Below, one piece after another: positions 3,701 to 57,697 of a stretch of DNA of 64,000 nucleotides (its first letter is position 1; every line of letters starts with the position of its first letter). The notes beneath the pieces were generated by a model. The model ran no database searches. It saw nothing but the letters and a program-made list of their open reading frames with translations, and had not been told where the DNA came from. The position numbers were made by a program, and so were the translations under genes. Source of the DNA: Eledone cirrhosa (taxonomy: Eukaryota). The stretch is from the NCBI GenBank assembly GCA_964016885.1, contig OZ024743.1:193378001-193442000 (forward strand). The letters run 5' to 3'.

Positions 3701-6700
3701 TTTGTGTGCCCCGTTTTTTTATTTGGGTGCCCCGTTTTTTATGGGGGGTCCGTTTTTTATTTCGGTGCTCCGTTTTTTCATGGGGGTGGGTCCGTTTTTT
3801 TATGGGGGTCCGTTTTTTATTTGGGTGCCCCGTTTTTTATTTGGGTACGCCGTTTTTTAATGGGGGGTCCGTTTTTTATGGAGGGTCGGTTTTTTTATTT
3901 GGGTGCCCCGTTTTTTCTATTGGGTGGTCCGTTTTCTATTTGGGTGTTCCGTTTTCTATTTGGGTGTCCCGTTTTTTATTTGGGTAGCCCGTTTTTTATG
4001 GGGGGGGGGGGTCCTTTTTATATTTGGGTGCCTCTTTTTTTAATTGGGAGTCCCGTTTATTTATTTGGGTGCCCCGTTTTTTTATGGGGGGTCTCCATTT
4101 TTTATTTGGGGGGAGTCCGTTTTTTATATGGGTGCACCATTTTTTTATGGAGGGGTCCGTTTTTTTATGGAGGGTGCCCCGTTTTTTTATGGTGGGAGGG
4201 GGGTCCGTTTTTTATTTGGGTGCCCCGTTTTTTTTTATAGGGGTCCGTTTTTTAAGGGTCGTCCGTTTTTTATTTGGGTGCACCGTTTTTTTATTTGGGT
4301 GCCCCGTTTTTGTATGGGGGAGTCCGCTTTTTACTTGGGTGCCCCGTTTTTTTATGGGGGGGTCCCGCTTTCTATTTGGGTGCCCCGGATTTTATGGGGG
4401 GGGGGTCCGTTTTTTATTTGGGTGCCCCGTTTTTTTTATGGGCGGTCGTTTTTTATTAGGGTGCCCCGTTTTTTATGGGGATCCGTTTTTTATTTATGGG
4501 GGGGGGGGTCGTTTTTATTTGGGTGCTCCGTTTTTAACTTGGGTGCCCCGTTCTTTACTTGGGTGCCCCTTTTTTTATGGGGGGGGGGGGTCCGTTTTTT
4601 ATTTGGGTGCCCCGTTTTCTATTTGGGTGCCCCGTTTTTTTTATTTGGGAGCCCCGTTTTTTAATGGGGGGTCCGATTTCCTATGGGGGTCCGTTTTTTT
4701 TATTTGGGTGCCCCTTTTTTTTATTTGGGTGCGTCGTTTTTTATGGGGGGTCCGTTTTTTATTTCGGTGCCCCGTTATTTTTATGGGGTGGTCCGTTTTT
4801 TATTTGGGTGCCCCGTTTTTTTATAGGCTGGTCCTTTTTTACCTGGGTGCCCTGTTTTTTTATGGGTGTATCCGTTATTTATTAGGGTGTCCCGTTTTTA
4901 GGGGTGGGGTCCTTTTTTTCATTTGGGTGCCTCGTTTTTTATGGGGGGTCCGTCTTTTATTTGGGTGCCCCGTTTTATATTTGGGTGCCCCGTTTTTTTA
5001 TTTGGGTGCCCCGTTTTTTTATGGCGGGTCCGTTTTTTATTTGCGTGCCCCCTTTATTCATTTGAGTGACCCGTTTTTATGGGGGGTGTCAGTTTTTTAT
5101 GGGGGTGGGTCCTTTTTTTATGGGGCGTCCGTTTTTTATATGGGTGCCCCGTTTTTTATTTGAGTGCCCCGTTTTTTTATGGGGTGTGTGCGTTTTTTAT
5201 TTGGGGGGAGTCCGTTTTTTATCTGGGTGCCCCGTTTTTTTTATGGGGGGGTCCGTTTTTTATTTGGGTGCCTCGTTTCTTTATGAAGGCGTCCTTTTTT
5301 TATTTGGTAGCCCCGTTTTTTATAGGGGGTGGTCCGTTTTTAATTTGGGTGCCCCCTTTATTCATTTGGGTGACCCGTTTTTTATTTGTGTGCCCCGTTT
5401 TTTTATTTGGGTGCCCCGTTTTTCTATGGAGCGTTATGTTTTTCATGGGGGGGATCCCTTTTTTATTTGGGTGCCTTGTTTTTTTATTTGGGTGCCCCTT
5501 TTTTTATGGGGGGGGTCCGTTTTTTATTTGGGTGCCCCGTTTTTTATGGGGCGTCCGTCTTATATCTGGGTGCCCCTTTTTTATGGGGGGATCCGTTATT
5601 CATTTGGGTGCCCCGTTCTTTTATGGGGGGTCCGTTTTTTATTTGGGTGCCGCATCTGTTTATGGGGGTCCGTTTTTTATATGGGTGCCCCTTTTTTTAA
5701 TTGGGTGCCCCGTTAATTTATTTGGGTGCTCCGTTTTTTTATGGGGTGTGTGCGTTTTTTATTTGGGGGGAGTCCGTTTTTTATCTGGGTGCCCCGTTTT
5801 TTTTATGGGGGGGTCCGTTTTTTATTTGGGTGCCTCGTTTTTTTATGAAGGCGTCCTTTTTTTATTTGGTAGCCCCGTTTTTTATAGGGGGTGTTTCGTT
5901 TTTAATTTGGGTGCCCCGTATTTTTATTTGGGTGCCCCGTTTTTTTATGGGGGGGGGGTCCATTTTTTATAAGGATTGTCCGTTTTTTTATCTGGGTGCC
6001 CCGTTTTTTTTATTTTGGTGCCCCTTTTCTATTTGGGTGCCCCGTTTTTTTTTATGTGGGGTCCGTCTTTTATTTGGGTTCCCCGTGTTTTTATGTGGGT
6101 GGGTCCGTTTTTTATTGGGGTTCCGTTTTTATTTGGGTGCCCCGTTTTTTTTATTTGGGTGCTCCGTTTTTTTTATTTTGATGGTCCGTTTTTTATTTGG
6201 GTGCCCCGTTTTTTTTATGGGGTTACCGTTTTTTATTTGGGTGCCCCGTTTTTTTATTTGGGTGCCCTGTTTTTTTATGGGGGGGTCCGTTTTTTATGAG
6301 GATTGTCCGTTTTTATTTGGGTGCCCCGTTTTTTATGGAGGGGTCCGTTTTTTATAAGGGTGCTCCGTTATTTTATTTGGTTACCCCGTTTTTTTATAGG
6401 GGGGGGGGGTCCGTTTTTTAATTTGGGCGTCCCGTTTTTTATTTGGGTGCCCCATTTTTTTTATTCGGGTGCCCCGTTTTTTTATAGGGGCGTCCGTATT
6501 TTTATGGGCCGGTCCGTTTCTTATTTGAGTGCCCCGTTTTTTTATTTGGATGCCCCGTTTTTTGTTTGGTTGCCCCTTTTTTATTTGGGTGCTCCATTGT
6601 TTTATGGCGGGTCCGTCTTTTATTTGGGTTCCCCGTGTTTTTATGGGGGGGGGGGGGTCCGTTTTTTATGGGGGTTCCGTTTTTTATTTGGGTGCTCCGT

Positions 6701-18572: not shown

Positions 18573-21548
18573 TCATCATCATCATCATCATCATCAACGT
18601 TTAACGTCCGTGTTCCATGCTTGCATGGGTTTGGACGGGGGTAGTCCCACTTGAGGCAAGAGTGATTGTCTTGCTCGCATAGGACTGTCTGGCAGGTTTT
18701 CTACAGTTGGATGCCCTTCCTAACACCAACCACATTTACAGTGTGGGTCTGGGAGGTTTTTACCGTGTTGCCTACACGGCCACATTACAGCGTGGACTGT
18801 GTGTTTTTTTGTCGTGACACCTACACGATCTCATTTGTTTCGGCCTGGATGGCGCGGCACCAACATAACTTTACATAGAACGGGGTGGTGTGGATGGGGT
18901 GGGGGTGGTGGCGGACGGGGTGTATTTTGTTAGAGATGCCTACTGGCAAGGCGGGTCTTCTCTGTTACTGAGTACCGCCAAAGGTCTCGGTCCAGTGACA
19001 TTGTCTTGGAGAGGTGTAAGTGTGTGAGGTCGGAGTTTATCAGCTCGTCCCAGGTTTTTCTAGGTCTGCCTATTCCGTGGCTACCGTCTATCTTTATTGC
19101 CCTGCACTTTGTTATACAGCTATCGACTTTCATGCGCATCACGTGTCCATACCAACGTAGCCTTCTCTCGAGTAAACAACATCTGATCCCTCTTATCTCT
19201 AATTTTTTCCTTAGTTCGTTTATGCTTTGCCGTTCACGTATATTACTGTTACACATCCAGCGGAGCATGCAAGCTTCGTTCTTCTCTAGTCTGCGTATAT
19301 CCTCTGCACACAATGCCCAGGTCTCACTGCCATGCAACATTGCTGTTCGTATGCAGGCATCGTACAACCTGCCTTTCATTTTTAGGGAGAACCCTTTAGC
19401 AGCTAATAGTGGTATAAGCTCTCTGAACTTTTTCTAACCAGTTCTGACTCTAGCTACTGTACTTTCAGAGCACCCTCCCCCACTGCTGATTTTATCGCCC
19501 AGGTAATGGAAGCTGTCCACTATTCTATAGAACCCTCTGCGCAATTGAAAGAGCTAGTATTTTGTGGGCACTTGCTGCTACTTATTGCACCAGAACACCG
19601 GCCACATGTAAAATCTATGTTCTTAGTTAGCTTACCTGTGATCCCACTACATCTTTTATGCACCCATACTTTGCATTTAGGACATAAAATGGAGTTTCTA
19701 CCTACGCCTTTCCTACACACCGAGCACGACCATTTCCCAGAAGGGACCGCCGCCTTGTTTTCTTTCCTACAAACTAGAACTTTAGTCTTAGCCAGGTTAA
19801 TTTTAAGTCCTTTTGACTCTAGGCCGTGCTTCCATGTTTGGAATTTCTTCTCTAGCTCGGCCATTGATTCCGCTATGAGTGTCAGGTCGTCTGCGTATAG
19901 GAGTTCCCATGGGCAGCCGGTCTTGAACTCCTCTGTTATAGCCTGAAGGGCAATAATAAATAGTAGGGGGCTGAGAACAGAGCCCTGATGGACGCCAACT
20001 TTTACGCTAAACTCTTCACTATATTCGTTGTTAATTCTAACCTTGCTGACTGTTTCTTTATACATGGCTTGTATAGCCCTCACAAGCCATTCGTCAACGC
20101 CTAGTTTTCTAAGAGCCCACCAGATAATGGAGCGGGGGACTCTGTCGAAGGCTTTCTCCAAGTCGACAAAAGCTAAGTAGAGGGGATTACCTTTAGCTAG
20201 GTACTTCTCCTGTAGTTGTCGTACTATGAAAAGAGCGTCTGTGGTACTTTTGCCTGACACAACCCCGAACTGCATTTCATCTAGGTCAATTCTCTCTCTG
20301 ATTAGTTGCGCTATTACTTTTTCCGTGACCTTCATGACCTGGTCGATTAATTTAATGCCTCTATAGTTACTCCTATCTAGGGCGTCTCCTTTACCCTTAT
20401 AACAGTTAACGATGATGCTGCTATGCCAGTCCTTCGGAACAACCCCATTCTGTACGACTTGGTTAACTATGCGGGTGACCATGGTGTGTCCCACCGTGCC
20501 AGATGCCTTCAGCATCTCAGCAACTATTTCCGAAGGCCCAGCCGCCTTACCCGTCTTCATATCCTCGATTGCCTTACTTATTATACTCCCCTCGACTAAC
20601 ACTGCTGGTCCCTCTATTGGGTCGATATGGGGGAGACTGTCTTTCTCCCATTTATTCTCCTCATTTAGTAGCCTTTCATAGTGACACTTCCAAGCTACCT
20701 TCTTATCAGCGTCGGTGATGGCAAGTATGCCATCATCGTTAAGTACACACTTCTCCCCGACAATATCACGGTTTTCCTTGACGCATTGCCTAGCAATCCT
20801 GAACACCTCACGTTTTTGGTCATCGCGTTGTAGAACGTGCTTGAACTTTCTTTCCTCAGCTTCCCTTCTTGCTAAGTACACTTGTCTCCTAGCTTCCCTC
20901 CTGGCCACTTGATAGTCTTCTCTACTTCCCCCATCCCGCCATACTTTCCAAGCCTGCTTTTTGGCCTTAATTGACCCCTCCACCTTACTGTTCCACCACC
21001 ATGTTACTCTCCTCCTGCCTACAGGCCTGCTCCAGCCACAGACTTCGTCTGTCGCCAACAGCAGGTTTGCATTCAGAAATTCCCACTGTCCCTCTATATT
21101 GTCCGACTCTAAATGTTCTTCCTTACTGTCGAAAGCATCAAGTAATATGCTTTGAAATTTATTTCTGGCTGTGGGGTCCTTTAGCTTCCATATTTTTCTC
21201 CTGAGGATAGTCCTCTTCTGCTGTCGAGTACGTCTCGTCCTGACTATGAGGTCGCTAATTATCAGTCTATGTTGGGAGGTGCATTCTTCATGGGGGAGGG
21301 ATTTAGTGTTTACAACAGACACTCTGTCACGTCTTCTGGTAAGGATATAATCTACCTGGCTTGTGTGTTCCCCGGATCTATAGGTGATCAGGTGATTGTC
21401 ACGTTTTTTGAAGTTAGTGTTACAGATAGTTAGGTTATTTGCATCACAGAATTCCAGGATTCTGGAGCCTTCCTCATTTCTAGTACCAAACCCATAGCCT
21501 CCATGGATTTCGTCGTAGCCGTCACAATGTTGTCCAACGTGACCATTT
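18573..21548 (-). mobile_element. RTE-clade LINE, 5'-truncated in the APE domain, with in-frame stops
   Basis: RT motifs AFVDLEKAFD, GVHQGSVLSP, LLYADD; C-terminal LRWYGHVMR, GRPRKTW; (GAT)n tail; stops near 19520 and 19436. Confidence 0.96.
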
Positions 21549-21565
21549 ATATATATATATAAGTA

Positions 21566-21734
21566 AAGTGTGGCTGAAACTCGAGTACGGGTATAGATTG
21601 AAGGTACCCATTTACGTGTGTTGTGTTAAAGCGAATAATTATGTGTCTACTCTGGAGTTTACTTAACATTACCTATTGAGTACGCCGAGATGCAACCGGT
21701 ACTAGCAATGAAACCCATGCTAGTCTCGTCAACT
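21566..21734. repeat. Right arm of the ~170-bp inverted repeat
   Basis: Reverse complement of 18326-18495. Confidence 0.9.
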
Positions 21735-26639: not shown

Positions 26640-27562
26640 ATATATATATATATTAGAAAAGGGAAGTAAGGTTCTATACAAAACAGTGGATATAGAGAAA
26701 AGGTGAAGTTGGAAATAGCGTGGAAAATATATTTTAGGGTCTGTTTTTCTTTTTTTTTATCCTTTCTTTGATTCGTCAAAGTGACATTATTGAAAAAATG
26801 AGAGGGACAATTCTTTAAAAAAAAAGTTTTATAATATATATTTTTGCATACACAAAAACAAAATATAAACAAACGTATTTATTTCATGAAAGCACAGGTG
26901 GCTTATCATCATTGTTACTGCCGATATGCCACCCAAAAAGTTCCAGCCTGGCTGCAAGATCAGATTTTCCAGAAGGAAAAATTTTACTAGAGCAACAGAG
27001 AGACTAAGCTTCGCGATTACCATCAACAAAGCTCAGGGTCAAACCCTAAACGTGGCTGGCCTTCATCTGGGAAAACCATGCTTCTCCCATGGTCAATTGT
27101 ATGTAGGATGCTCTAGGGTGAGCTCGCCAAACAATCTCTTCATCTTTGCTCCCAAGGGCCGAACAAAAAAATATTGTAATTTATGTATTTTCTGTGACTT
27201 GGAATTTCCATTATGGTTGTACAAATTATTGTAAAGTTTGTTAAAAAATGTGTTCTCTGTTCAGCCTTTATTGTTGTAACTCTTTTACCTGTTTCAGCCA
27301 TCTGGCTGAGGCCATGCTGGGGCATCGCCCTTGACTATCAATTTTCAATTATCAATTTTCAATTTCAACTATCAATTTTCTTTAACGTACTGGCTGCTGA
27401 ACTGGGGAATCCTAAAAACTATTCAAACCCAACATCAGAGCACGTTTACCCCCCCCCCCCACACACACATAATATCTCTTTTGCACTGGAGTGGAGGGTC
27501 AATCCTGAAAAAATAAAATGCCGGTATACCTAGCCGGGCGCCAGCCGGACGGGCCAGATACT
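26640..27562 (+). mobile_element. Non-autonomous Helitron carrying a Pif1 helicase C-terminus
   Basis: RLSFAITINKAQGQTL..CFSHGQLYVGCSRV; GC-rich end at 27530-27562; inverted sister copy at 37380-38025. Confidence 0.85.
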
Positions 27563-29992: not shown

Positions 29993-30040
29993 ATGGTCAA
30001 AAAAGGGAAGAAAGAAGAGAAGCCTCCAGCGGAAGATGTT
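29993..30040 (+). CDS. ARMC3: Armadillo repeat-containing protein 3, first coding exon (MVKKGKKEEKPPAEDV)
   Basis: Acceptor tttcag at 29974, ATG 29993, donor GTATGT; resembles the recalled human N-terminus MGKKIKKEVEPPPKDV; joins FDPL in phase 0. Confidence 0.88.
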
Positions 30041-31749: not shown

Positions 31750-32935
31750 ATGGCTTATGAAAGTAGCGATACCGACTTTGAAGGTTTTACACATGACGAC
31801 ATTCAGAATAAACAAGAAACAAACGATAATATTAGTGATTTATCTTCAAATGAATCTGATGTTTTTATTTCTGAAATTTCGTCCAACGATGATTGTTTTG
31901 AAAGTGAAAACGAAGGAGATCTCCAGGGCACCATTGAAAATATTACAGCAATGTGGTTGAAAAATACCACACTAATATATGTTCCCGATTTTATTCAAAA
32001 TACTGGTCCACAACACACATTAGCTCCCGATGCTAAAGCACTGGATTATTTCTTTTTGTTTTTACCACAAACTTTCTTCGAAGTTGTGGCAGAAGAGATT
32101 AATTGATATGCCCAACAACAGATTTCAAATCGAGGAAAACCCGATCTGTTTGGCGACCGACAGATGCTGCGGAAATGCAAGCATTTTTTACCGTAAATAT
32201 TATGTTCGGTATAAAACAATTTCCAAGACTGTGGAATTACTGGAACACTGATATAAGGTTTAGTGATCCTTATATATGAAATACTAGCAGTGGTACCAGG
32301 CGTTTCATGGGATAAGGTATTGTGAAATATATAACCGCCTTAGCTAAGCTTAGTATTGCCACAACCACGGCTGGCAAAGAAGTAAGGGTCTGGTGGTACT
32401 AAGTAAGCAACACTGTGGCTTAAAATGTGAGGAAGAAGTTGTGTGCACTTACCAACTGTTTGGGGAATGAGTGTGAGATTTGTCTTGAGCAAGGGTGGCA
32501 GAATAACCGGAGGCAGCAGACAGCCAGACATACAGACAGATATTATAAGGGCGTGTTCTGGACGTAGAGCGAATTGTAGGAAGTGATGTAAGGCAGACAG
32601 CCAGACATACAGACAGATATTATAAGGGCGCGACGTTATATGTATGTATCTATCTAAAAAGAGAAAGACTAAGAATTATAGAGAGAGATCGCTAAATCGC
32701 CTAATGCGGTCCCTAGGGCATTGAAAATTTGAAATTTTTTTGCTCAGAACACTTCCTGAAACATAAGTATTACATGTGTAGAGTTTGAAAACAGTCGGTT
32801 GGGTGCTTCTCTAGTTTTAGGGATTCAAACTCACACACACAGACAGACATCCTCAGTTTTCTATATATAGATTATGCCGAAAACAATGTATTTATTATTA
32901 AACCAGTATTTGCACCTGGTTGATACTTCGAATGC
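31750..32935 (+). pseudogene. piggyBac-like transposase N-terminal remnant split by a Helitron
   Basis: SSDTDFEGF, ALDYFFLF, EIN*YA, EMQAFF, NYWNTD; resumes after 32871 as IMPKTMYLLLNQYLHL. Confidence 0.8.
32284..32871 (-). mobile_element. Non-autonomous Helitron with the same 5' end as 30202-30794
   Basis: - strand TCTATATATAGAAAACTGAGG start; hairpin-CTAG end; A|T insertion without TSD. Confidence 0.87.
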
Positions 32936-39366: not shown

Positions 39367-42300
39367 TCATCATCATCATCATCATCACCGTTTTACGTCA
39401 GTTCTTCCACGCTAGCATGGGTTAGACGGGTTGTCCTGTGTGGGCAGTGTCTGGTCGGCTGACCATGCCTTGCTCATACAGGAACTGATTTGGCTTGATT
39501 TCTACAACTGGATGCCCTTCCTAACACCAACCTCATTTACAGTGAGTGCTGGGTGCTTTTTCGTGGTACCTACACGTCCACTTTACAGTGTGGGCTGGGT
39601 GCTTTTTTGCCGTGGCACCTCCACGACCACCTTGCAGTGGGAGGTTGTGGGGGCATATTGTCTATATGCTTCAGCTTGTACCCATGGGAGGTCGGATACT
39701 CTATATTACTGCGTGACGCCAGAGGTCACGGTCGTGTGTCATCGCCTTTGAGAGGTGTAATTGGGTAAGGTCGGCTTTTATCACCTGATCCCAGGTCATC
39801 TTGGGTCTCCCCACTCCGCAGTTTCCATCGACTTCTAGTGTTCTGCACCTTTTTATGCAGCTGTCATCCTTCATACGCATCACATGTCCATACCAACGCA
39901 TCCACCTCTCCTGCACACAGCATTTGATTCCTCTTATGCTCAGTCTCTCTCTCAATTCATTTATGCTTTGTCGTTCGTGTATATTACTATTACACATCCA
40001 TCGGAGCATGCAGGCTTCGTTTCTCTCTAATCTACGTAAGTCTTCCACCTTCAGCGCCCAGGTCTCACTACCATGTAACATTGCTGTTCGGATACACGCA
40101 TCATACAGTCTGCCTTTCATTTTGAGGGAGAAGCCTTTTGCAGCTAGCAGTGGTAGTAGTTCCCTGAACTTCTTCCATCCCGTTCTTACCCTAGTTATTG
40201 TACTTTCTGAACACCCACCTACGCTGCTAATTCGGTCACCTAGGTAGCAGAAGCTGTCTACTGTCTCTACAGAGCCCTCCCAGAGATTGGTGGTACTTGT
40301 TTCCTGTGGCTGTTTGCTGCTTGCTGTCCCAGTACAGCTGCTGCATGTGAAGCCTACATTCTTAATTAAGCTTCCTGAGATCCCGCTACATCTCTTGTGT
40401 ACCCATTGTTTGCATTTGGGGCAGAGAATGAAGTTCCTACCTACACCTTTCCTACATACTGAGCAAGGCCATTTCCCTGAGGGGATCTGGGTTCTGTTTT
40501 CTCGTCTACTTACAAGGACCTTAGTCTTTGTCATGTTGACTTTGAGACCCTTTCTTTCTAGTCCCTGCTTCCAAGTTTGGAATTTCTTCTCTAATTCTAC
40601 CATAGATTCAGCTATAAGTGCGAGGTCATCAGCATACAGGAGTTCCCATGGGCATCCAGTCTTAAACTCCTCCGTTATTGCCTGCAGGACTATGATGAAC
40701 AGGAGAGGGCTAAGAACAGAGCCCTGGTGGACCCCAACCTGTATGCTAAATTCCTTGCTATACTCATTGCTAATCCTAACTTTGCTGACTGCTCCCCTAT
40801 ACATGGCTTGTACAGCTTTCACAAGCCATTCATCTACTCCTAGTTTTCTAAGAGCCCACCAAATTACAGCATGTGGAACTCTGTCAAAGGCTTTCTCGAG
40901 ATCGACGAATGCCAGGTAGAGTGGCTTACTTTTAGCTAGGTACTTTTCCTGTAACTGCCTCACAAGGAAGAAGGCATCAGTGGTGCCTCTTCCTGGTACA
41001 AACCCAAATTGCATCTCATCTAGTTTCACCCGGTCCCTAATCAACTGTGCTATAACTCTTTCTGTTACTTTCATGACCTGGTCCATCAGCTTTATACCTC
41101 TATAGTTTCCTCTATCTAGTGCATCACCTTTACCTTTGTAGCAGTTGACAAGGATGCTACTACACCAATCTTTTGGTATGACACCTTCTAGTATTACCTG
41201 GTTAACAATACGTGTGGTTATAGTGTGACCTACAGACCCAGATGCCTTCAGCATCTCGGCAGCTATACCCGATGGACCGGTTACCTTCCCCATCTTCATA
41301 TCTTTGATTGCCTTACATACTACGCTGCTGCTCACTTGTACTGCTGGCCCCTCTATAGGGTCTCTTCTTCCCATGCATTCTCCTCATTTAGTACTCGATC
41401 ATAATGGCTCTTCCATGCATCTTTCTTCTCAGTACTTGTGAGGGCAAGCTCACCTTTATCATTCCGGATACACTTCTCTCCAATGACATCACAATACTCT
41501 CTGACACACTGCCTTGCAATCTTGAACACCTCCTGTTTCTGGTCCTCACGTTGCAAAACATGCTTGAATTTTCTATCCTCTGCTTCCCTCCTAGCTAAGT
41601 ATACTTGTCGCCTAGCTTCCCTCTTGGTCTCTATGTAATGTATCCTGCTGCCCCCGTTCTTCCATTCTTTCCATGTCTGTCTCTTGGCCTTAACTGCCTC
41701 ATCTACCTTATTGTTCCATCACCAAATCACTCTCCTTCTGCTTGTGGTCTTACTCCAGCCACAGACCTCATCTGTCGCCTCTAGTAGGTTATTTTTTAGG
41801 AACTCCCAGTGCTCTTCTACATTGAATGTCTCTATCTGTTCTTCTTTACTGTCGTAGGCGTCGAGTAAAATATCTTTAAATCTGTTACTGGCTGAGGGGT
41901 CTTTCAGCTTCCACATCTTTATTCTCCAGGTTGGCCTCTGTTTCCAGGTTTGTCTAGTTCTGACTGTGAGGTCGCTGACAACTAAGCTATGTTGGGAGGT
42001 ACATTCCTCACTAGGGAACGCTTTTGTGTTTACAACCGTCCTTCTGTCACGTCCTCTGATGAGGATAAAATCTATATGACTAGAATGCTCCCCTGGTCTA
42101 TAGGTGATCAGGTGGTTGTCGGGTTTTTTGAAGTTTGTGTTACATATCGACATGTCATTGGCGTCGCAGAATTATAGAAGTCTGAATCCTTCTTCATTTC
42201 TTGTGCCAACCCCGTGGCCTCCATGGACTCTATTGAAGCCGTCACAGTGTTTACCTATGTGTCCGTTAAAATCTCCTGCGATGATTAGGAAGTCATTGTC

Positions 42301-46694: not shown

Positions 46695-46699
<5 letters not shown>

Positions 46700-47232
46700 T
46701 TAGTTAAGCAAAACAAGACCACAGATTTCACAAGGAAGACATTATTAAAAGATTGTCAACATATTTTAGTTTGATGTAAGGAATGTACAGAATAATAATA
46801 ATAATGTCCGTTTACAATTGTTTCGCTACTCCATATAATATTTCTAGATCAAATGATTATATATCATTATTGATATGATTCAGTTGAAAATAATTAACGA
46901 AGGTAGAAATAGAGCAGCTCATCGGAACATCAAAAGGAATATAAATTAAAATAAGGAAAGTATGTTACATAAATGTAATGTTCCACATGTTGGTATTTCA
47001 CTATGGTGATATCTTGGCTAGGGCCCAACCGTTCAATGGACGAAGAAAATCTTGTGAACTCTGTCTTACCGAAGTATATTACATAACTCTATCATGACCT
47101 CTACCGATTAATGATAGAAAGGAGGTAACTATTAGCTGTCAACATCGAAGGGCTAATTCCTTATGTTGACAATCTTTTAATAATGTCTTCCTTGTGAAAT
47201 CTGTGGTCTTGTTTTGGTTAACTAATGAATAT
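46695..47232 (+). mobile_element. Penelope-like 3' fragment with inverted terminal copy
   Basis: 47005-47169 GDILARAQPFNGRRKSCELCLTEVYYI..*..INDRKEVTISCQH; 46695-46762 is the reverse complement of 47163-47230. Confidence 0.8.
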
Positions 47233-47599
47233 TTCCAGCTCTGTGCACCTAACCTCTGCATGAATCCAGCCACCTAGCTGCATTCCACTGCATATTGCAC
47301 ATTGAGCACATGCCTTTACGCTTTGGCTTCTAACTAATTCACCAATCTCTCCTCTCCTATCTCCATCTCTCTCTTTAAGATTGGTTACTTTTGAACTGTG
47401 TATATATATATATATATATATCATCATCATCATCATCATTTCATTTTACGTCCGCTTTTCCCTGCTTGCAAGGGTGGGACGGGAACTGATTCTGGCTTGA
47501 TTTCTACAGCTGGATGCCCTTCCTAACACCAACCTCATTTACAGTGAGTGCTGGGTGCTTTTTTGCCGTGGCACCTACACGACCACTTTGCAGTGGAAT

Positions 47600-47764
47600 G
47601 ATAGGGACCTCAGTCCCTATCATCTCATTTCTACAGCTGAGTAAACTGGAGCAATTTGAAATAAAGTGTCTTGCTCAAGGAAACAACACACCACCCGGTC
47701 TGAGAATTGAACTCACAACCTTTCGATTGCAAGGCCAATGCTCTAACCACTAAGCCATGTGCCT

Positions 47765-47766
<2 letters not shown>
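47600..47766 (-). mobile_element. tRNA/CORE-type SINE (second family)
   Basis: ggcttagtggttagagc A box; tttccttgagcaagacact core; sister copy at 49279-49430 (+). Confidence 0.8.
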
Positions 47767-47810
<44 letters not shown>

Positions 47811-47901
47811 CGAAGGAAATGTGGTAAGGAACCAAGTGGACCATAATACACCAAAGTACTCAATACTTAGAGTAGTAGAGTGGGTAATAGGAACGAGTAG
47901 G

Positions 47902-47997
47902 ACCCCGACGGCTGAGCTCAAGCTGTTTCGACGGCTAATTCTGGACTAAATGAAAATTTTTATCCTGGTATATGAATAGCCGAGCTTCTCAGGGGGT
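47902..47997 (-). ncRNA. Hammerhead motif, left-arm copy
   Basis: ACCCC-CUGAGAA-G..CGGCUA...UAGCCG.C-GAAA-CAGC uugagcuca GCCG-UC^GGGGU. Confidence 0.6.
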
Positions 47998-49105
47998 AAT
48001 TCCATATATGGTAAAAGTGATTGTTACAAGGATTGGTCAAAAATTTGTTGTTGTGACACATAATTCTATCATGGCAATTTGTGGAAGGAAGGGGTAGCTA
48101 AACCTGCCAGTAGAAGAAAGAGGGCGAGGGGGTGGAGGAAACCCAGTCATGCATTGATAGTACCAACTACAGCAGGGCAAGAGGTCAAGCAAGTATACTA
48201 GGGAAGGGGAGGGGGAGGAAGTCGAAACAATAAGTAAAACAATATGGGGTAAATATATAGAAGAATACCGAGAATGTTAAAAGTATAAAAAAAACAATTT
48301 CTGGTTACTATTCCCTAACGACAGTTATCAAGTCTCTCACTGGTACTGCTAAACTATAGAAAAGTTTACTAGGTGGGACGGGATTATAATGAGACCATTT
48401 TAAGAGTTAGTAGTAATCAACCGAGTATATCTTACGGTGACAGGTCAACAAGTGGGGGGCCAAAATACTAAAGAAACTACCACAAAATAATAATTCAGAG
48501 TCCCGAGACTAATACGAAATAATTTATTTCGTATTAGTTTATTTTTTGCACTGGGTGGTTGCTGGCCTTGTGCCTAGGGTAGAAACAATTATTTCATATT
48601 AGTCTCGGGACTCTGAATTATTATTTCGTGGTAGTTTCTTTAGTATTTTGGCCCCCCACTTGTTGATCTGTCACCGTAAGATATACTCGGTTGATTACTA
48701 CTAACTCTTAAAATGGTCTCATTATAATTCCGTCCCACCTAGTAAACTTTTCTATAGTTTAGCAGTACCAGTGAGAGACTTGATGACTGTCGTTAGGGAA
48801 TAGTAACCAGAAATTGTTTTTTTTTATACTTTTAACATTCTCGGTATTCTATATATTTACCCCATATTGTTTTACTTATTGTTTCGACTTCCTCCCCCTC
48901 CATAGTATACTTGCTTGACCTCCTGCCCTGCTGTAGTTGGCACTATCAACGCACGACTGGGTTTCCTCCACCTCCTCTCCCTCTTTCTTCTACTGGCAGG
49001 TTCAGCTACCCCTTCCTTCCACAAATTGCCATGATAGAATTATGTGTCTCAACAACAAACTTTTGACCAATCCTTGTAACAATCACTTTTACCATATATG
49101 GAATT

Positions 49106-49201
49106 ACCTCCTGAGAAGCTCGGCTATTCATATACGAGGATAAAAATTTTCATTTAGTCCAGAATTAGCCGTCGAAACGGCTTGAGCTCAGCCGTCGGGG
49201 T
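49106..49201 (+). ncRNA. Hammerhead motif, right-arm copy (sense to ARMC3)
   Basis: ACCUC-CUGAGAA-G..CGGCUA...UAGCCG.C-GAAA-CGGC uugagcuca GCCG-UC^GGGGU; predicted cut after 49196. Confidence 0.65.
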
Positions 49202-49211
49202 CCTACTCGTT

Positions 49212-49265
<54 letters not shown>

Positions 49266-50499
49266 CATACATTTCCGTGAAGGCACATGGCTAGTGGTTA
49301 GAGCATTGGGCTTGCAATCGAAAGGTTGTGAGTCTAATTCTCGGACTGGGTAATGTGTTGTTTCCTTGAGCAAGACACTTTATTTCACATTGCTTTAGAA
49401 ATGAGATGAGATGATAGGACTGGGGTCCCTATACATACACATGACTATTTAATACCCGAACAATGCCGAGTACCTCTGCTAGTTTGTGATAAAATTCACT
49501 GTATTTGAATCAGTCAATGAAGAATTTGAAAGTATTTACTAAAATTATTTCAAATATCAATATTTATTTGTAATATAACAAAGGTTTTTATATAAAATAT
49601 GGAAGATTTTAATTTAAATAGGAGCCTTTTAAATGAATGTTTTTTTTAAAAAAAAAAACCAAAAGAGGTTTTGGGCAGGTTGGTATTGAAATGGTTAAGG
49701 TGATGAAATGACAGATGTATTAGAGTGTTGAATTAAATGCCTTGTAGTATTTGTTCTGACTTTGTGCTTTGAGTTCAAATCCTGCAAAAGACAACCTGGC
49801 CTCTTGTCCTTTTGTTGTCAGTAACTAAAGTACCATTCCATGTTGGTGGATTAATGGGATTGTTAGGGTGTTGAATGTGATGCTTATGGTTATCTCTTTC
49901 GGCCCTTTGTATATGCCCTAGAAATGCAGTATGTCAATATGGTGCCCCTACGATTCCCTCAGGAGTTATGAGTCCATACATACCATTCTGAGCCTAGCTG
50001 GTGCCAAGTTGTATCAGCTCTTGCTTTTCTTTTGGACAGTGTTGGTGGCATGGAGAGAGAAGACTTTCATATATAGTCAACTGCTGTTATTTTAAGAGAT
50101 TTCTTCTTCTTCTTTGCCCACTTATTCCTGAGAGGGTTGTGGGGAGCAGAGTCCTCAAACACTCCTTCTAGTGGGTCCTATCAGAAGCAACCATCTCCAA
50201 CTGATCTGGCTGGATCCCCAAGCAAGACCAGCCAAGCTCATGGATGTTATCCAACCATCTTGCTCTGGGTCTATGCCTGGATCTCTTGCCAGTTGATTTT
50301 GCCTGTAAAATCTGTAGAGTGATACTTTTCTGAGACATTCAGACTACATGCCCATAGTATTGGAGCTGTGATCTCTTAATTCAGAGAAGTAGTGACTCTA
50401 CCTGGAGTGACCCTTTGATCTCTGAGCTATGCACTCTATTGAATAATGTTACTCCAAAGAGACTTCGGAGGACCCCATTTCAGCCGCTTTTAAGAGACT

Positions 50500-53164: not shown

Positions 53165-53282
53165 TTTGATCCATTAGTGATTGAAGCTAAACAAGCTAGA
53201 ACAGCTGTTTTAATGCTGGCCAGTTCTGAAACTGAAGTACAGGCACATGCTTGTGAATCCATATATAGATTTGTGGCTAAAA
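53165..53282 (+). CDS. ARMC3: ARMC3 coding exon 2 (FDPLVIEAKQARTAVLMLASSETEVQAHACESIYRFVAK)
   Basis: AG/GTAAGT boundaries; phase 0 to 1; resembles recalled FDPLMIESKKAATVVLML. Confidence 0.93.
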
Positions 53283-53653
53283 GTAAGTAGTTTATTTTTA
53301 TTTATTGTCGTAAGAAGCAAAGGGACCTACCTTTGCATCTCCATACATGTCCGGACTGAATTTTCCTGTGTGATGTTCACCTGTTATGTGTCTGGCCAGA
53401 GAACATAGCAAATCTCACACACTCATTCACACAAGTCATTACAAAGATGTCCTCCTTCACCACCACCATCACCACCACCATTCAATACCTATTTTACTTG
53501 CTTCCATTGGTTAGATAGATTGTCAGGTACTGAGGTTAGACCAGCCATACATCATCATCATCATCATCGTTTATACATAGAGAGTCCTCATGCCCACCTT
53601 CCAGCAGCTCCTCCTGTCAAAAGCAACCATCTCCCTTTATTTTATATTTTCAG

Positions 53654-53779
53654 ATGATGAGAACAAAAAAACCCTGTTAGATCTGAATGCCTGTGAACCA
53701 CTTTTGGAATTGATGAAAAATGAAGACAGAATTGTTCATAGAAATGCCCTCGTGGCGCTGTCTACCATGTGTGCACACC
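53654..53779 (+). CDS. ARMC3: ARMC3 coding exon 3 (DENKKTLLDLNACEPL...EDRIVHRNA)
   Basis: AG/GTGAGT; phase 1 to 1; ARM repeat. Confidence 0.93.
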
Positions 53780-54003
53780 GTGAGTTGATTTCTCTTCATC
53801 TTATTTCTCATATAACAATCCCTGCTAGCAAGGGTTGCTCACTCAGGTGTTCACAGGCCATGTCAGTACTCAAGCAGAGCTACTGAGCTCCCAGATGATT
53901 ATTTACATTCCCACACTCTACTTAGTGCTCAGGCAGGCCGGGTGTTGGGTGGGTGGATCTGTACCTTGCTTGTTTACATTTTTGCATTCTACTGTGTTAT
54001 AGG

Positions 54004-56555: not shown

Positions 56556-56829
56556 CTGGGAGGGTCGTGGAAGCAGAGTCCTCAAACACCCCTTCCAAAG
56601 GCAACCATCTTCAACTGATTCAGCGCTGGATCCCCAAGCGAGACCAGCCAAGCTTGTGGATTGTTATCCAACTATGATGCTCGGGGTCTAGTCCTGGGCC
56701 CCCTGCCGGTTGGTTTTGCCCATAAAATTTGTCCAGTGATTTTTTCTTGAAATAGGTGTATACCAATTATTAAAATAAATTTTATGCAATCAAACAAAAT
56801 ACCTATTTCTATCATCTTTTCATATACAG

Positions 56830-57005
56830 ATGAAACAATTGTATTAGAATTTGCATGTATGGGTTTGAATTATTTGTCAACTGAATTTGTGAGCAAAGCA
56901 GAAATATTTAATTCTCAAGCCCTTGAACCGTTAATACGTTGTCTTAACCACAGCGATCCTGATGTACAGAAGAACTCTATTGAAGCTTTATCTCAGTTAG
57001 TGCTG
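56830..57005 (+). CDS. ARMC3: ARMC3 coding exon 5 (ETIVLEFAC...LEPLIRCLNHSDPDVQKNSIE)
   Basis: CAG/GTAAGT; phase 1 to 0. Confidence 0.94.
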
Positions 57006-57697
57006 GTAAGTAATACATTATGTATGAAATCCTATAGATCTAATATATAGTTTTATCACAGTGGATGTGAATCCTTACTTCGATTATATTCATTACTATT
57101 ATTTTCTCCTAGCCTTTATAATTAATTAATTGATTGTTTAATTGTTTGTTTGAAAACCTAACTGAGAGCTTACTTCAAGGCTGTGAATAAATCCTTTGTT
57201 CACACTTTTGAATGTACCTACCAAAATCCAGGAAATGACCTTCTTCTTTTTGAGAAAGGACACTTGTCCTCACTGCCAAATTTACTACTACAGTTGAATG
57301 GTAGTGTTGTCTCAGGACATGATGAAAGTGAATACTTGCAACGAAAGACCTGTTGACATTCCATTTTAGGATACATTACTGACATTATGGAACTTGGAGT
57401 GTAACTTCCAGATTAACAGAAGCCTATTGAAGATATTTATCGATTAATATCTATTGATCTGGTCCAGGTTCGCCTTTAACCTGTCTGTATTTTTCATTGT
57501 TGTAGGATTAATGTGGTAACATGCCTCTGGTCGCATTATTCATTGTGTCACTATTACCTAACTTATTGTGTTCACTCGGAGGAGAAATTTATTAATTGCT
57601 CTATCATTGAGTGCTTTGTGACAGTCTTTGAAAATTGGATGCGAATCTGTTAATTTCAGCTGCAGCTTTGATTATACTCATTACTATTATATATATA

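Follow-up and report, generated by a model that had tools for sequence, protein, structure and literature searches.

We analysed a window of 64,000 nucleotides (nt) of Eledone cirrhosa DNA (contig OZ024743.1, positions 193,378,001 to 193,442,000 of the forward strand), in which a 1.4-kb palindrome with two hammerhead-like motifs lies inside the gene ARMC3. The results indicate that this palindrome is very probably made of two head-to-head, 5′-truncated copies of the 3′ untranslated region (3′-UTR) of a Penelope-like element (PLE), set in a (TA)n tract of ARMC3 intron 1, likely by a single integration. The host gene was delimited by tblastn. Coding exon 1, with amino acids (aa) 1-16 MVKKGKKEEKPPAEDV and a GTATGT donor, occupies 29993-30040 on the + strand (81-87% identity in the window, E 1e-4 to 2e-5, queries P0001 and P0002). 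Coding exon 2, with aa 17-56 and a TTTCAG acceptor, occupies 53165-53284 (+; E 1e-13). Further ARMC3 exons follow on the + strand up to 63027, and Pfam recognizes Arm repeats at 53581-53883 and 56751-57047 on the same strand, the first of them 82% identical to octopus ARMC3. Because exons 1 and 2 flank the palindrome, it resides in the 23-kb intron 1 and its + arm is sense to the gene, in agreement with a previous reading of the bare letters (the sequence-only reading), which had assigned the locus to ARMC3 and called one arm sense.

The palindrome is built from two main inverted-repeat blocks, 47887-48212/48891-49216 (326 nt, 96%) and 48287-48524/48587-48824 (238 nt, 98%), and is completed by two more of 55 and 33 nt, both 100% identical. 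BLAST of arm against arm gave 95.6% identity over 639 columns; arms this long and this alike exclude chance, and the long palindrome claimed for the locus is thus real. The left copy, on the - strand, extends over 47810-48524 and is truncated at about position 353 of the 993-nt UTR of a full-length relative, L121 (BLAST, L121 UTR 353-1073 to 48522-47810, 90.8%). Its outer end is an 80-nt tail (47810-47889), located between GTTCC and a (TA)n microsatellite (47767-47809) and absent from the right copy. The latter, on the + strand, covers 48525-49213, is truncated at about UTR position 281, lacks a tail and ends in GTTCC (BLAST, L121 UTR 281-996 to 48524-49216, 90.0%), and it is followed by a second (TA)n microsatellite at 49214-49272. 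The two copies meet at a perfect 31-nt palindrome, 48508-48538, centred on 48523. It is built on a microhomology, a 15-nt word of which the element has two copies; this direct repeat is visible in the family consensus as well. The extent first proposed was 47887 to 49216; on the left the copy reaches 47810 through the tail, and the 62 nt at 48525-48586 that had passed for a spacer are part of the right copy and are matched by other copies of the family.

A DNA search of the species' own 3.0-Gb genome with one arm returned 2870 first-look candidates; scoring of 40 of these gave 46 matches, and the full-length ones were 94-100% identical. Copies are 5′-truncated at many different points, and those sampled whose ends were read terminate in ...GTCGGGGTCCTACTCGTTCC, followed by (TA)n either directly or after the 80-nt tail. 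The longer ones carry a degenerate open reading frame (ORF), and a protein search with a piece of it produced 36273 first-look candidates, many of them with open frames of about 785-795 aa. The family comprises thousands of copies and is very abundant. L121 displays the complete order: (TA)n, an inverted 5′-truncated copy, a direct pseudo-LTR (long terminal repeat) of 231 nt, a 794-aa ORF, the 993-nt 3′-UTR with the hammerhead-like motif near its end, the 80-nt tail and (TA)n. In sequence the tail is the same as the stretch with which the full-length unit begins after its pseudo-LTR, and positions 1-142 of the L121 unit are the same as the 3′ terminal stretch 5605-5746. We compared the ORF with the list of Hydra-clade features in section 11 of Craig et al. 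(2021, PMC8557442). The L121 protein contains SDKTGN (DKT), RLRWR (for RW(K/R), the RWK being RWR here), CNCPDRSIC (CxCX5C), VIYQ...AYIG (GIY...YIG) with no CCHH inside, and CNLC (CxxC) plus CKH (CxH) near the end; read by eye, all five Hydra-clade protein features are present both in this ORF and in the 795-aa ORF of a second locus, L120. The 794-aa ORF has 145 homologues at E<=1e-5, a coral sequence among them; most are about 700 aa long and lie on contigs of some 2.5 kb. Against this assignment, Pfam named no family for the 794-aa ORF, for the degenerate ORF pieces of L031 or for four of the homologues, and the labels PF26215 and PF28514 precomputed on homologues were neither reproducible nor interpretable, so that the case for a PLE is made by the architecture and by motifs read by eye. 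By these, rather than by a profile or a reverse-transcriptase tree, the element would be a PLE of the Hydra clade.

Three further observations concern the family at large. The L120 locus (G000:C3:35058500-35066500) has an inverted partner 99.2% identical over 1238 nt, which suggests a recent insertion and a family that may still be active. The last ~80 nt of the element, comprising stem III and the end, outnumber the inner arm by a factor of 50-100 (window bins 47888-47971 and 49148-49231), and often occur as head-to-head mini-palindromes of about 100-200 nt in (TA)n, truncated within helix II. A sister family with a canonical core was also considered (pattern GCTGTCGAAACGGCNNGAGCT, 7719 matches) and set aside, since most of the matches proved to be copies of the same superfamily, either CpG-decayed or ultra-short and palindromic.

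To see how copies of this family are arranged, we used an exhaustive pattern search for the 19-nt context of the motif core, which found 2361 copies in the genome (reversed control, 0), and surveyed the first 100 of these in positional order on contig 1 for pairs no more than 6 kb apart. Fifty-eight of the 100 motif-bearing copies made up 29 -/+ head-to-head pairs, in which the distance between cores ranged from 179 to 5414 nt; the two window cores are separated by about 1120 nt. Other orientations were limited to one +/- pair and two -/- pairs. Both members shared the same core variant, labelled by positions 3 and 7, in 29/29 pairs (chance 0.335 per pair), and the tail was present on exactly one member in all nine pairs whose ends were read. 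According to the sections of PMC8557442 that deal with PLE insertions, these show heavy 5′ truncation, an inverted 5′-truncated copy at the 5′ end, preferred insertion into (TA)n, a short tail often at one end only and hammerheads near the 3′ ends; dual hammerheads 100-700 bp apart on opposite strands appear likewise in the account of Cervera and de la Peña (2014, PMC4209133). The family exhibits this Hydra-clade architecture, with 5′ truncation, pseudo-LTR, inverted 5′-truncated partner and one-sided tail, and the (TA)n preference is seen at both window ends and in the sampled copies, directly or after the tail. The palindrome is therefore the standard insertion form of the PLE and not the special structure that it had been taken for: 29 such pairs occur among 100 copies.

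A plausible course of events can be outlined. The endonuclease of the element would nick both strands of the (TA)n target, and because this target is self-complementary both nicked strands could prime. Reverse transcription would then start from the two nicks at U/A-rich sites in the 3′ part of the RNA, one following GUUCC and the other following the tail, and the two cDNAs would be joined by microhomology at the repeated 15-nt word, leaving the perfect 31-nt centre.

The two motifs that gave rise to the analysis are located at 49106-49201 on the + strand, sense to ARMC3 (core 49111-49117, predicted cut 49196/49197), and at 47902-47997 on the - strand (core 47992-47986, predicted cut 47907/47906). 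Both arms present a CTGAGAA core and then, at a distance, GTCGAAAC, a stem, a loop containing GAGCTC, the return strand and GTC/GGGG. In the + arm, helix I is ACCUC/GGGGU and the core reads C3 U4 G5 A6 G7 A8 A9; these are followed by the pair G10.1-C11.1, a 2x1 internal loop, a long imperfect helix II whose main strands are 57 nt apart, G12 A13 A14 (GAAA), the pair A15.1-U16.1, a 6-bp stem III with the loop UGAGCUC, and C17. Stem III is perfect in this arm (ACGGCU/AGCCGU) and carries one G-to-A change in the - arm, while a change in helix I is found in the + arm. The features picked out from the letters, namely CUGAGAA with a C3/A8 mismatch in both arms, a long helix II, a GAGCUC-type loop III and a perfect stem III in the + copy, were thus accurately described. 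Twelve of the 13 hammerhead core positions fit. The misfit is position 8, since the core strand C3 U4 G5 A6 N7 G8 A9 is broken by A8 in both window arms, and the 3′ part of the core, GUC GAAA C...G UC/G, is complete in both. Across copies, G10.1-C11.1 is kept in 61/64 and A15.1-U16.1 in 60/64. From sequence we infer that the motif would be the type-I hammerhead of the family, 17 nt from the unit end.

If the motif cuts, copies might begin at the cut site, and some do. Among 35 distinct ultra-short copies, taken from the first 100 overlapping matches listed, 11 start exactly at G1.1, and up to 16 when ambiguous junctions are counted; about 1.4 would be expected if starts were spread evenly over some 25 positions (binomial p 7e-8). 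Some of the copies starting at G1.1 are mini-palindromes whose arms both begin at this nucleotide. We also observed 94-nt solo units flanked by (TA)n that start exactly at the predicted cut site (GGGGTCC...) and extend through the whole 80-nt tail (for example at L152, L153, L160, L168 and L170). About 10 of 19 starts of the 94-nt unit come directly after (TA)n. Tail-bearing copies starting at G1.1 after an A/T 4-mer numbered 43/7461 with a 17-nt marker confined to U3-A8 subfamilies, and 19/8361 with a marker that the C3/A8 clade has in common with the U3-A8 relatives closest to it (odds ratio 2.5, p 5e-4), a comparison in which the G1.1-starting copies themselves hold no core, the second marker is mixed and the marker groups differ in other respects too. 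The lower rate is in the direction expected if C3/A8 cut less well, an indirect indication. Several caveats attach to this reading. Starts also gather, in smaller clusters, 9 and 15 nt upstream of the predicted cut, and the G1.1 peak could equally arise from a reverse transcriptase that stops at the base of stem III. Ordinary copies all include the 17 nt past the cut, so that their templates were uncut at the 3′ motif. Exact cut-site starts may nevertheless be a genomic footprint of cleavage in vivo that could be mined.

An alternative that has to be weighed is that the motif is no hammerhead but the stem-loop by which the 3′ end of the element is recognized by its reverse transcriptase, the likeness being a decayed relic or chance. 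The model searches and folds lean this way. None of the Rfam hammerhead models (Hammerhead_1, _3, _II, HH9 and HH10) reached its gathering score over the 64 kb, and no hammerhead appeared at E<=10 over 2.1 kb or over 136 nt around the motif; the top Rfam matches were miRNA hairpin families, which merely mirror the palindrome. Minimum-energy folds of both window motifs were not hammerheads and were no better than shuffles (z -0.03 and -1.18). Covariation was nearly absent, with three double-change pairs against a shuffled mean of 2.0, a value reached by 127/500 shuffles, and this is explained by the copies being so alike. Helices II and III share the words CGGCU ... AGCCGUC, which occur twice (49118-49126 with 49167-49175, and 49177-49182 with 49190-49195), so that the 3′ strand of helix II can pair with the 5′ strand of helix III in a hairpin that rivals the drawn structure. 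All of these results weigh against a hammerhead, as does the replacement of G8, invariant in canonical cores, by A in 99.3% of the copies. The uncut templates and the excess of the last ~80 nt over the inner arm would likewise suit a 3′ recognition hairpin. The drawn structure, in turn, had 94.2% of 1654 cells paired in 64 copies compared with 23-47% when the partners were slid, a figure obtained from the same sequences from which the structure was drawn. A recognition hairpin leaves unexplained why 12 of 13 core positions are as in a hammerhead, G10.1-C11.1, GAAA, A15.1-U16.1 and C17 among them, why the misfit A8 pairs with an ancestral U3, a covariation known from other PLE hammerheads in the passages of PMC4209133 concerned, and why N7 is the only letter of the heptamer to vary. 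The place near the 3′ end is also that of PLE hammerheads in the corresponding part of PMC8557442, and a divergent copy, L063, keeps stem III through a double change from C-G to G-C and has a three-way junction as its best fold. Together with the copies that begin exactly at G1.1, these points make a mere recognition hairpin unlikely, and we retain a type-I hammerhead as the more probable reading. In the same genome, 18 of 74 scored Hammerhead_1 matches exceeded the cut-off (loci L034-L051), all in a different PLE-like family; this second family has a canonical hammerhead, CCUGAUGAGUCCUAAAUAGGACGAAAC, with a very short helix III, and ends about 55 nt downstream in (TA)n.

We then compared the state of the core across the genome. 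A8 is fixed in 2345/2361 copies defined by the 19-nt context; 1144 of these are U3/A8 in the genome-wide pattern search and, by difference, 1201 are C3/A8, the 16 copies with G8 being 4 C3-G8 and 12 U3/G8. The fifth letter of the heptamer, N7, was G in 80, U in 14, A in 4 and C in 2 of 100 copies, with its neighbours A6, A8 and A9 invariant. Because this letter varies as N7 should and the letters next to it are constant, a reading of CUGAGAA as a core with N7 deleted and an extra A is unlikely. The divergent subfamilies, in which N7 is U, A or C, are all U3/A8. In a tree of 52 of the 66 sampled copies (midpoint-rooted, taken without its support values, and omitting 14 copies that do not cover the last 352 nt), the C3/A8 copies formed one clade nested among U3/A8 copies, with stray C3 or G8 copies scattered. 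Since C3/A8 is a single derived clade, it is C3 and not A8 that is the changed base, and the change is older than the insertion in ARMC3. The ancestral core is thus apparently UUGANAA, that is, U3-A8. Such a core has precedents, because U3-A8 is a natural covariant of C3-G8 in Schistosoma PLE hammerheads in the passages of PMC4209133 on these elements, and natural U3-A8 cores, whose activity in vitro had been shown earlier, are treated in the relevant part of Perreault et al. (2011, PMC3088659).

The window arms belong to the C3/A8 clade, and of 26 distinct copies fetched by likeness to one of them 24 were C3/A8 and 2 were U3/A8. L121, the copy with an intact ORF, has the C3/A8 core twice, in the pseudo-LTR and at the 3′ end. 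The sequence-only reading had offered the choice between a new core variant and an inactivation that preceded the duplication. What stands is that the atypical state is older than the duplication, being shared by at least 1201 copies, and its fixation across a subfamily brings it nearer to the second option than to a private mutation; what falls is the notion of a new kind of core. Across copies the family is not canonical, being either U3-A8 or C3/A8, so the objection that the window holds an inactive variant of a canonical family does not apply in that form. The C3/A8 mismatch would be expected to reduce self-cleavage. It evidently did not stop the lineage from multiplying, to judge from its 1201 copies, the one with the intact 794-aa ORF included. 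As a tentative proposal, which we regard as possible at most, the roughly 1200 copies made by this lineage might mean either that the C/A core has remained able to cleave, by way of a protonated A+·C wobble for instance, or that PLE retrotransposition needs no ribozyme catalysis. The matched cores U3-A8 (1144 copies) and C3/A8 (1201 copies) within one lineage bear on whether PLEs need their hammerheads to retrotranspose, a need that PMC8557442, in its discussion of Naiad elements without them, calls into doubt. Sister subfamilies that differ at one base, combined with a pile-up of 5′ ends at the predicted cut, would constitute a natural read-out of this question, if the footprint is true.

Returning to how the palindrome arose, the same arrangement could in principle result from two independent insertions of one subfamily into a single (TA)n tract, in opposite orientation by chance. 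The (TA)n is a hot target, its region also holding two copies of a short interspersed nuclear element (SINE) and a miniature inverted-repeat transposable element (MITE)-like element, and the arm-to-arm identity of 95.6% is about that of an arm to the best other copies (94-96%). In the tree, moreover, the two window arms are not sisters. This position counts against a common integration, and so does the fact that both the single event and the double priming are steps that we infer; the Logan contigs (four runs of one study), at 59-110 nt, are too short to bridge the palindrome centre. Independent insertions, however, predict both orientations and mixed core variants, whereas -/+ pairs outnumber +/- pairs by 29 to 1 and the variant matches in every pair. 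The arms abut without intervening (TA)n at the microhomology palindrome, and there is a single tail per pair, as in the other pairs read. When compared with the majority of 17 subfamily copies, picked by position and not by similarity, the two arms had 16 derived columns in common, with 14 and 12 private columns, a pattern that fits one source followed by independent decay. Two separate insertions are therefore quite improbable, and a single integration of the PLE is the reading that we carry forward.

We also considered a role of the palindrome in its host gene. Folded as one RNA, 47810-49216 gives a near-unbroken duplex of about 630 bp with a minimum free energy of -1154.3 kcal/mol and the motif inside it, in accordance with the duplex previously proposed. 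Sequestration of the sense motif would thus be expected on thermodynamic grounds, and the duplex would be a plausible ADAR substrate in ARMC3 pre-mRNA; cephalopods are heavy editors of RNA. These points, with the sense orientation of the + motif in intron 1 and a C3/A8 lineage that stayed productive, are what could be said for CUGAGAA as a working new core and for a palindrome that acts on ARMC3 RNA through antisense-gated self-cleavage or as an editing platform. Such action is highly improbable. The same structure recurs at dozens of sampled loci, and by extrapolation at hundreds, regardless of genes; the arms decay freely, the motif included, as seen in stem III of the - arm and helix I of the + arm; C3/A8 breaks the pair that is kept by both known core forms in the passages of PMC4209133 and PMC3088659 on core variants; and the marker shared with C3/A8 had the fewer cut-site starts. 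Nothing suggests any host role for the palindrome, and the intronic duplex is one of very many such duplexes. As for the palindrome being an assembly artefact, a fold-back chimera of long reads, its probability is practically negligible even though neither a read nor a contig has been shown to span the centre and such structures trouble assemblies (in the pertinent passage of PMC8557442), because a fold-back would yield identical, equally truncated arms, whereas these arms differ at 26 private columns and in truncation point (UTR 281 vs 353), only one has a tail, and other loci across the genome have the same build, 29 of them among the 100 sampled copies alone.

Other repeats surround the palindrome. 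Two tRNA-headed SINE copies, at 47413-47766 (-) and 49281-49432 (+), face it from either side; they were rejected as part of the palindrome, as they are just 84% alike and constitute a separate family. The left one gives an Rfam tRNA match of 28.1 bits at 47700-47757, slightly below the cut-off of 29, and ARAGORN found no tRNA over the 64-kb window. It has an (ATG)n end and (TA)n on both sides, as if the SINE too lands in (TA)n, and the same SINE stands directly after the PLE end and (TA)n at L014, one of 28 other loci fetched by likeness to the arm. The MITE-like element (46697-47232), with 71-nt terminal inverted repeats (99%), adjoins a (CA)n/(TA)n tract and is unrelated to the PLE. The intron further contains reverse-transcriptase-like open frames at 19523-21625 (-, 701 aa) and 39704-41383 (-, 560 aa), together with helicase-like fragments and a piggyBac-type transposase fragment (DDE_Tnp_1_7, E 3e-6), listed at 26890-27231 (+) and 32103-32276 (+).

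Among known systems, the closest are the Hydra-clade PLEs as portrayed in the relevant sections of PMC8557442. With these the element shares a single ORF with a C-terminal GIY-YIG, DKT in place of DKG, RW(K/R), CxCX5C, the lack of CCHH, and CxxC plus CxH near the end, as well as (TA)n insertion, heavy 5′ truncation, a pseudo-LTR, an inverted 5′-truncated copy, a tail at one end and a hammerhead close to the 3′ end; the reported hosts include molluscs. It differs from the elements described there in size, with a unit of about 3.5 kb and a 3′-UTR of about 1 kb against less than 3 kb, and in its tail of 80 nt against 30-40. In addition, the hammerheads of those elements are canonical and readily detected, whereas here the core is U3-A8 or C3/A8, helix II has a 57-nt insert and Rfam finds no match. 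The supplementary files S1 and S2 of PMC8557442, which list hammerheads per family, may already hold similar cores. PLE hammerheads as covered by the PMC4209133 passages, those of Schistosoma Cercyon included, resemble the present one in being type-I motifs in a terminal repeat, in U3-A8, in the conserved G10.1-C11.1 and in a palindromic loop 3, and also in forming opposite-strand pairs a few hundred bp apart amid mostly solitary truncated copies. In those minimal motifs helix III has 0-2 bp and dimers are held to be the working form, in contrast to the stable 6-bp helix III and long helix II seen here; the same passages make no mention of a C3/A8 form that reached about 1200 copies. The natural U3-A8 cores in the part of PMC3088659 on this subject keep the 3-8 pair, which the window copies break. 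A further parallel is offered by the non-LTR retrozymes, in the portions of bioRxiv 10.64898/2026.07.22.740005 that treat them, since these non-autonomous PLE derivatives too are hammerhead-bearing PLE terminal sequences that multiply without coding capacity; they form short tandem repeats and circular RNAs, while the copies described here are dispersed, truncated and inverted. Set against these systems, a Hydra-type PLE motif with a long helix II, a stable helix III, a U3-A8 core and a large C3/A8 sub-lineage would be mildly new, and the long 'twin ribozyme' palindromes of this genome, of which hundreds more are expected, are routine products of PLE integration into (TA)n.

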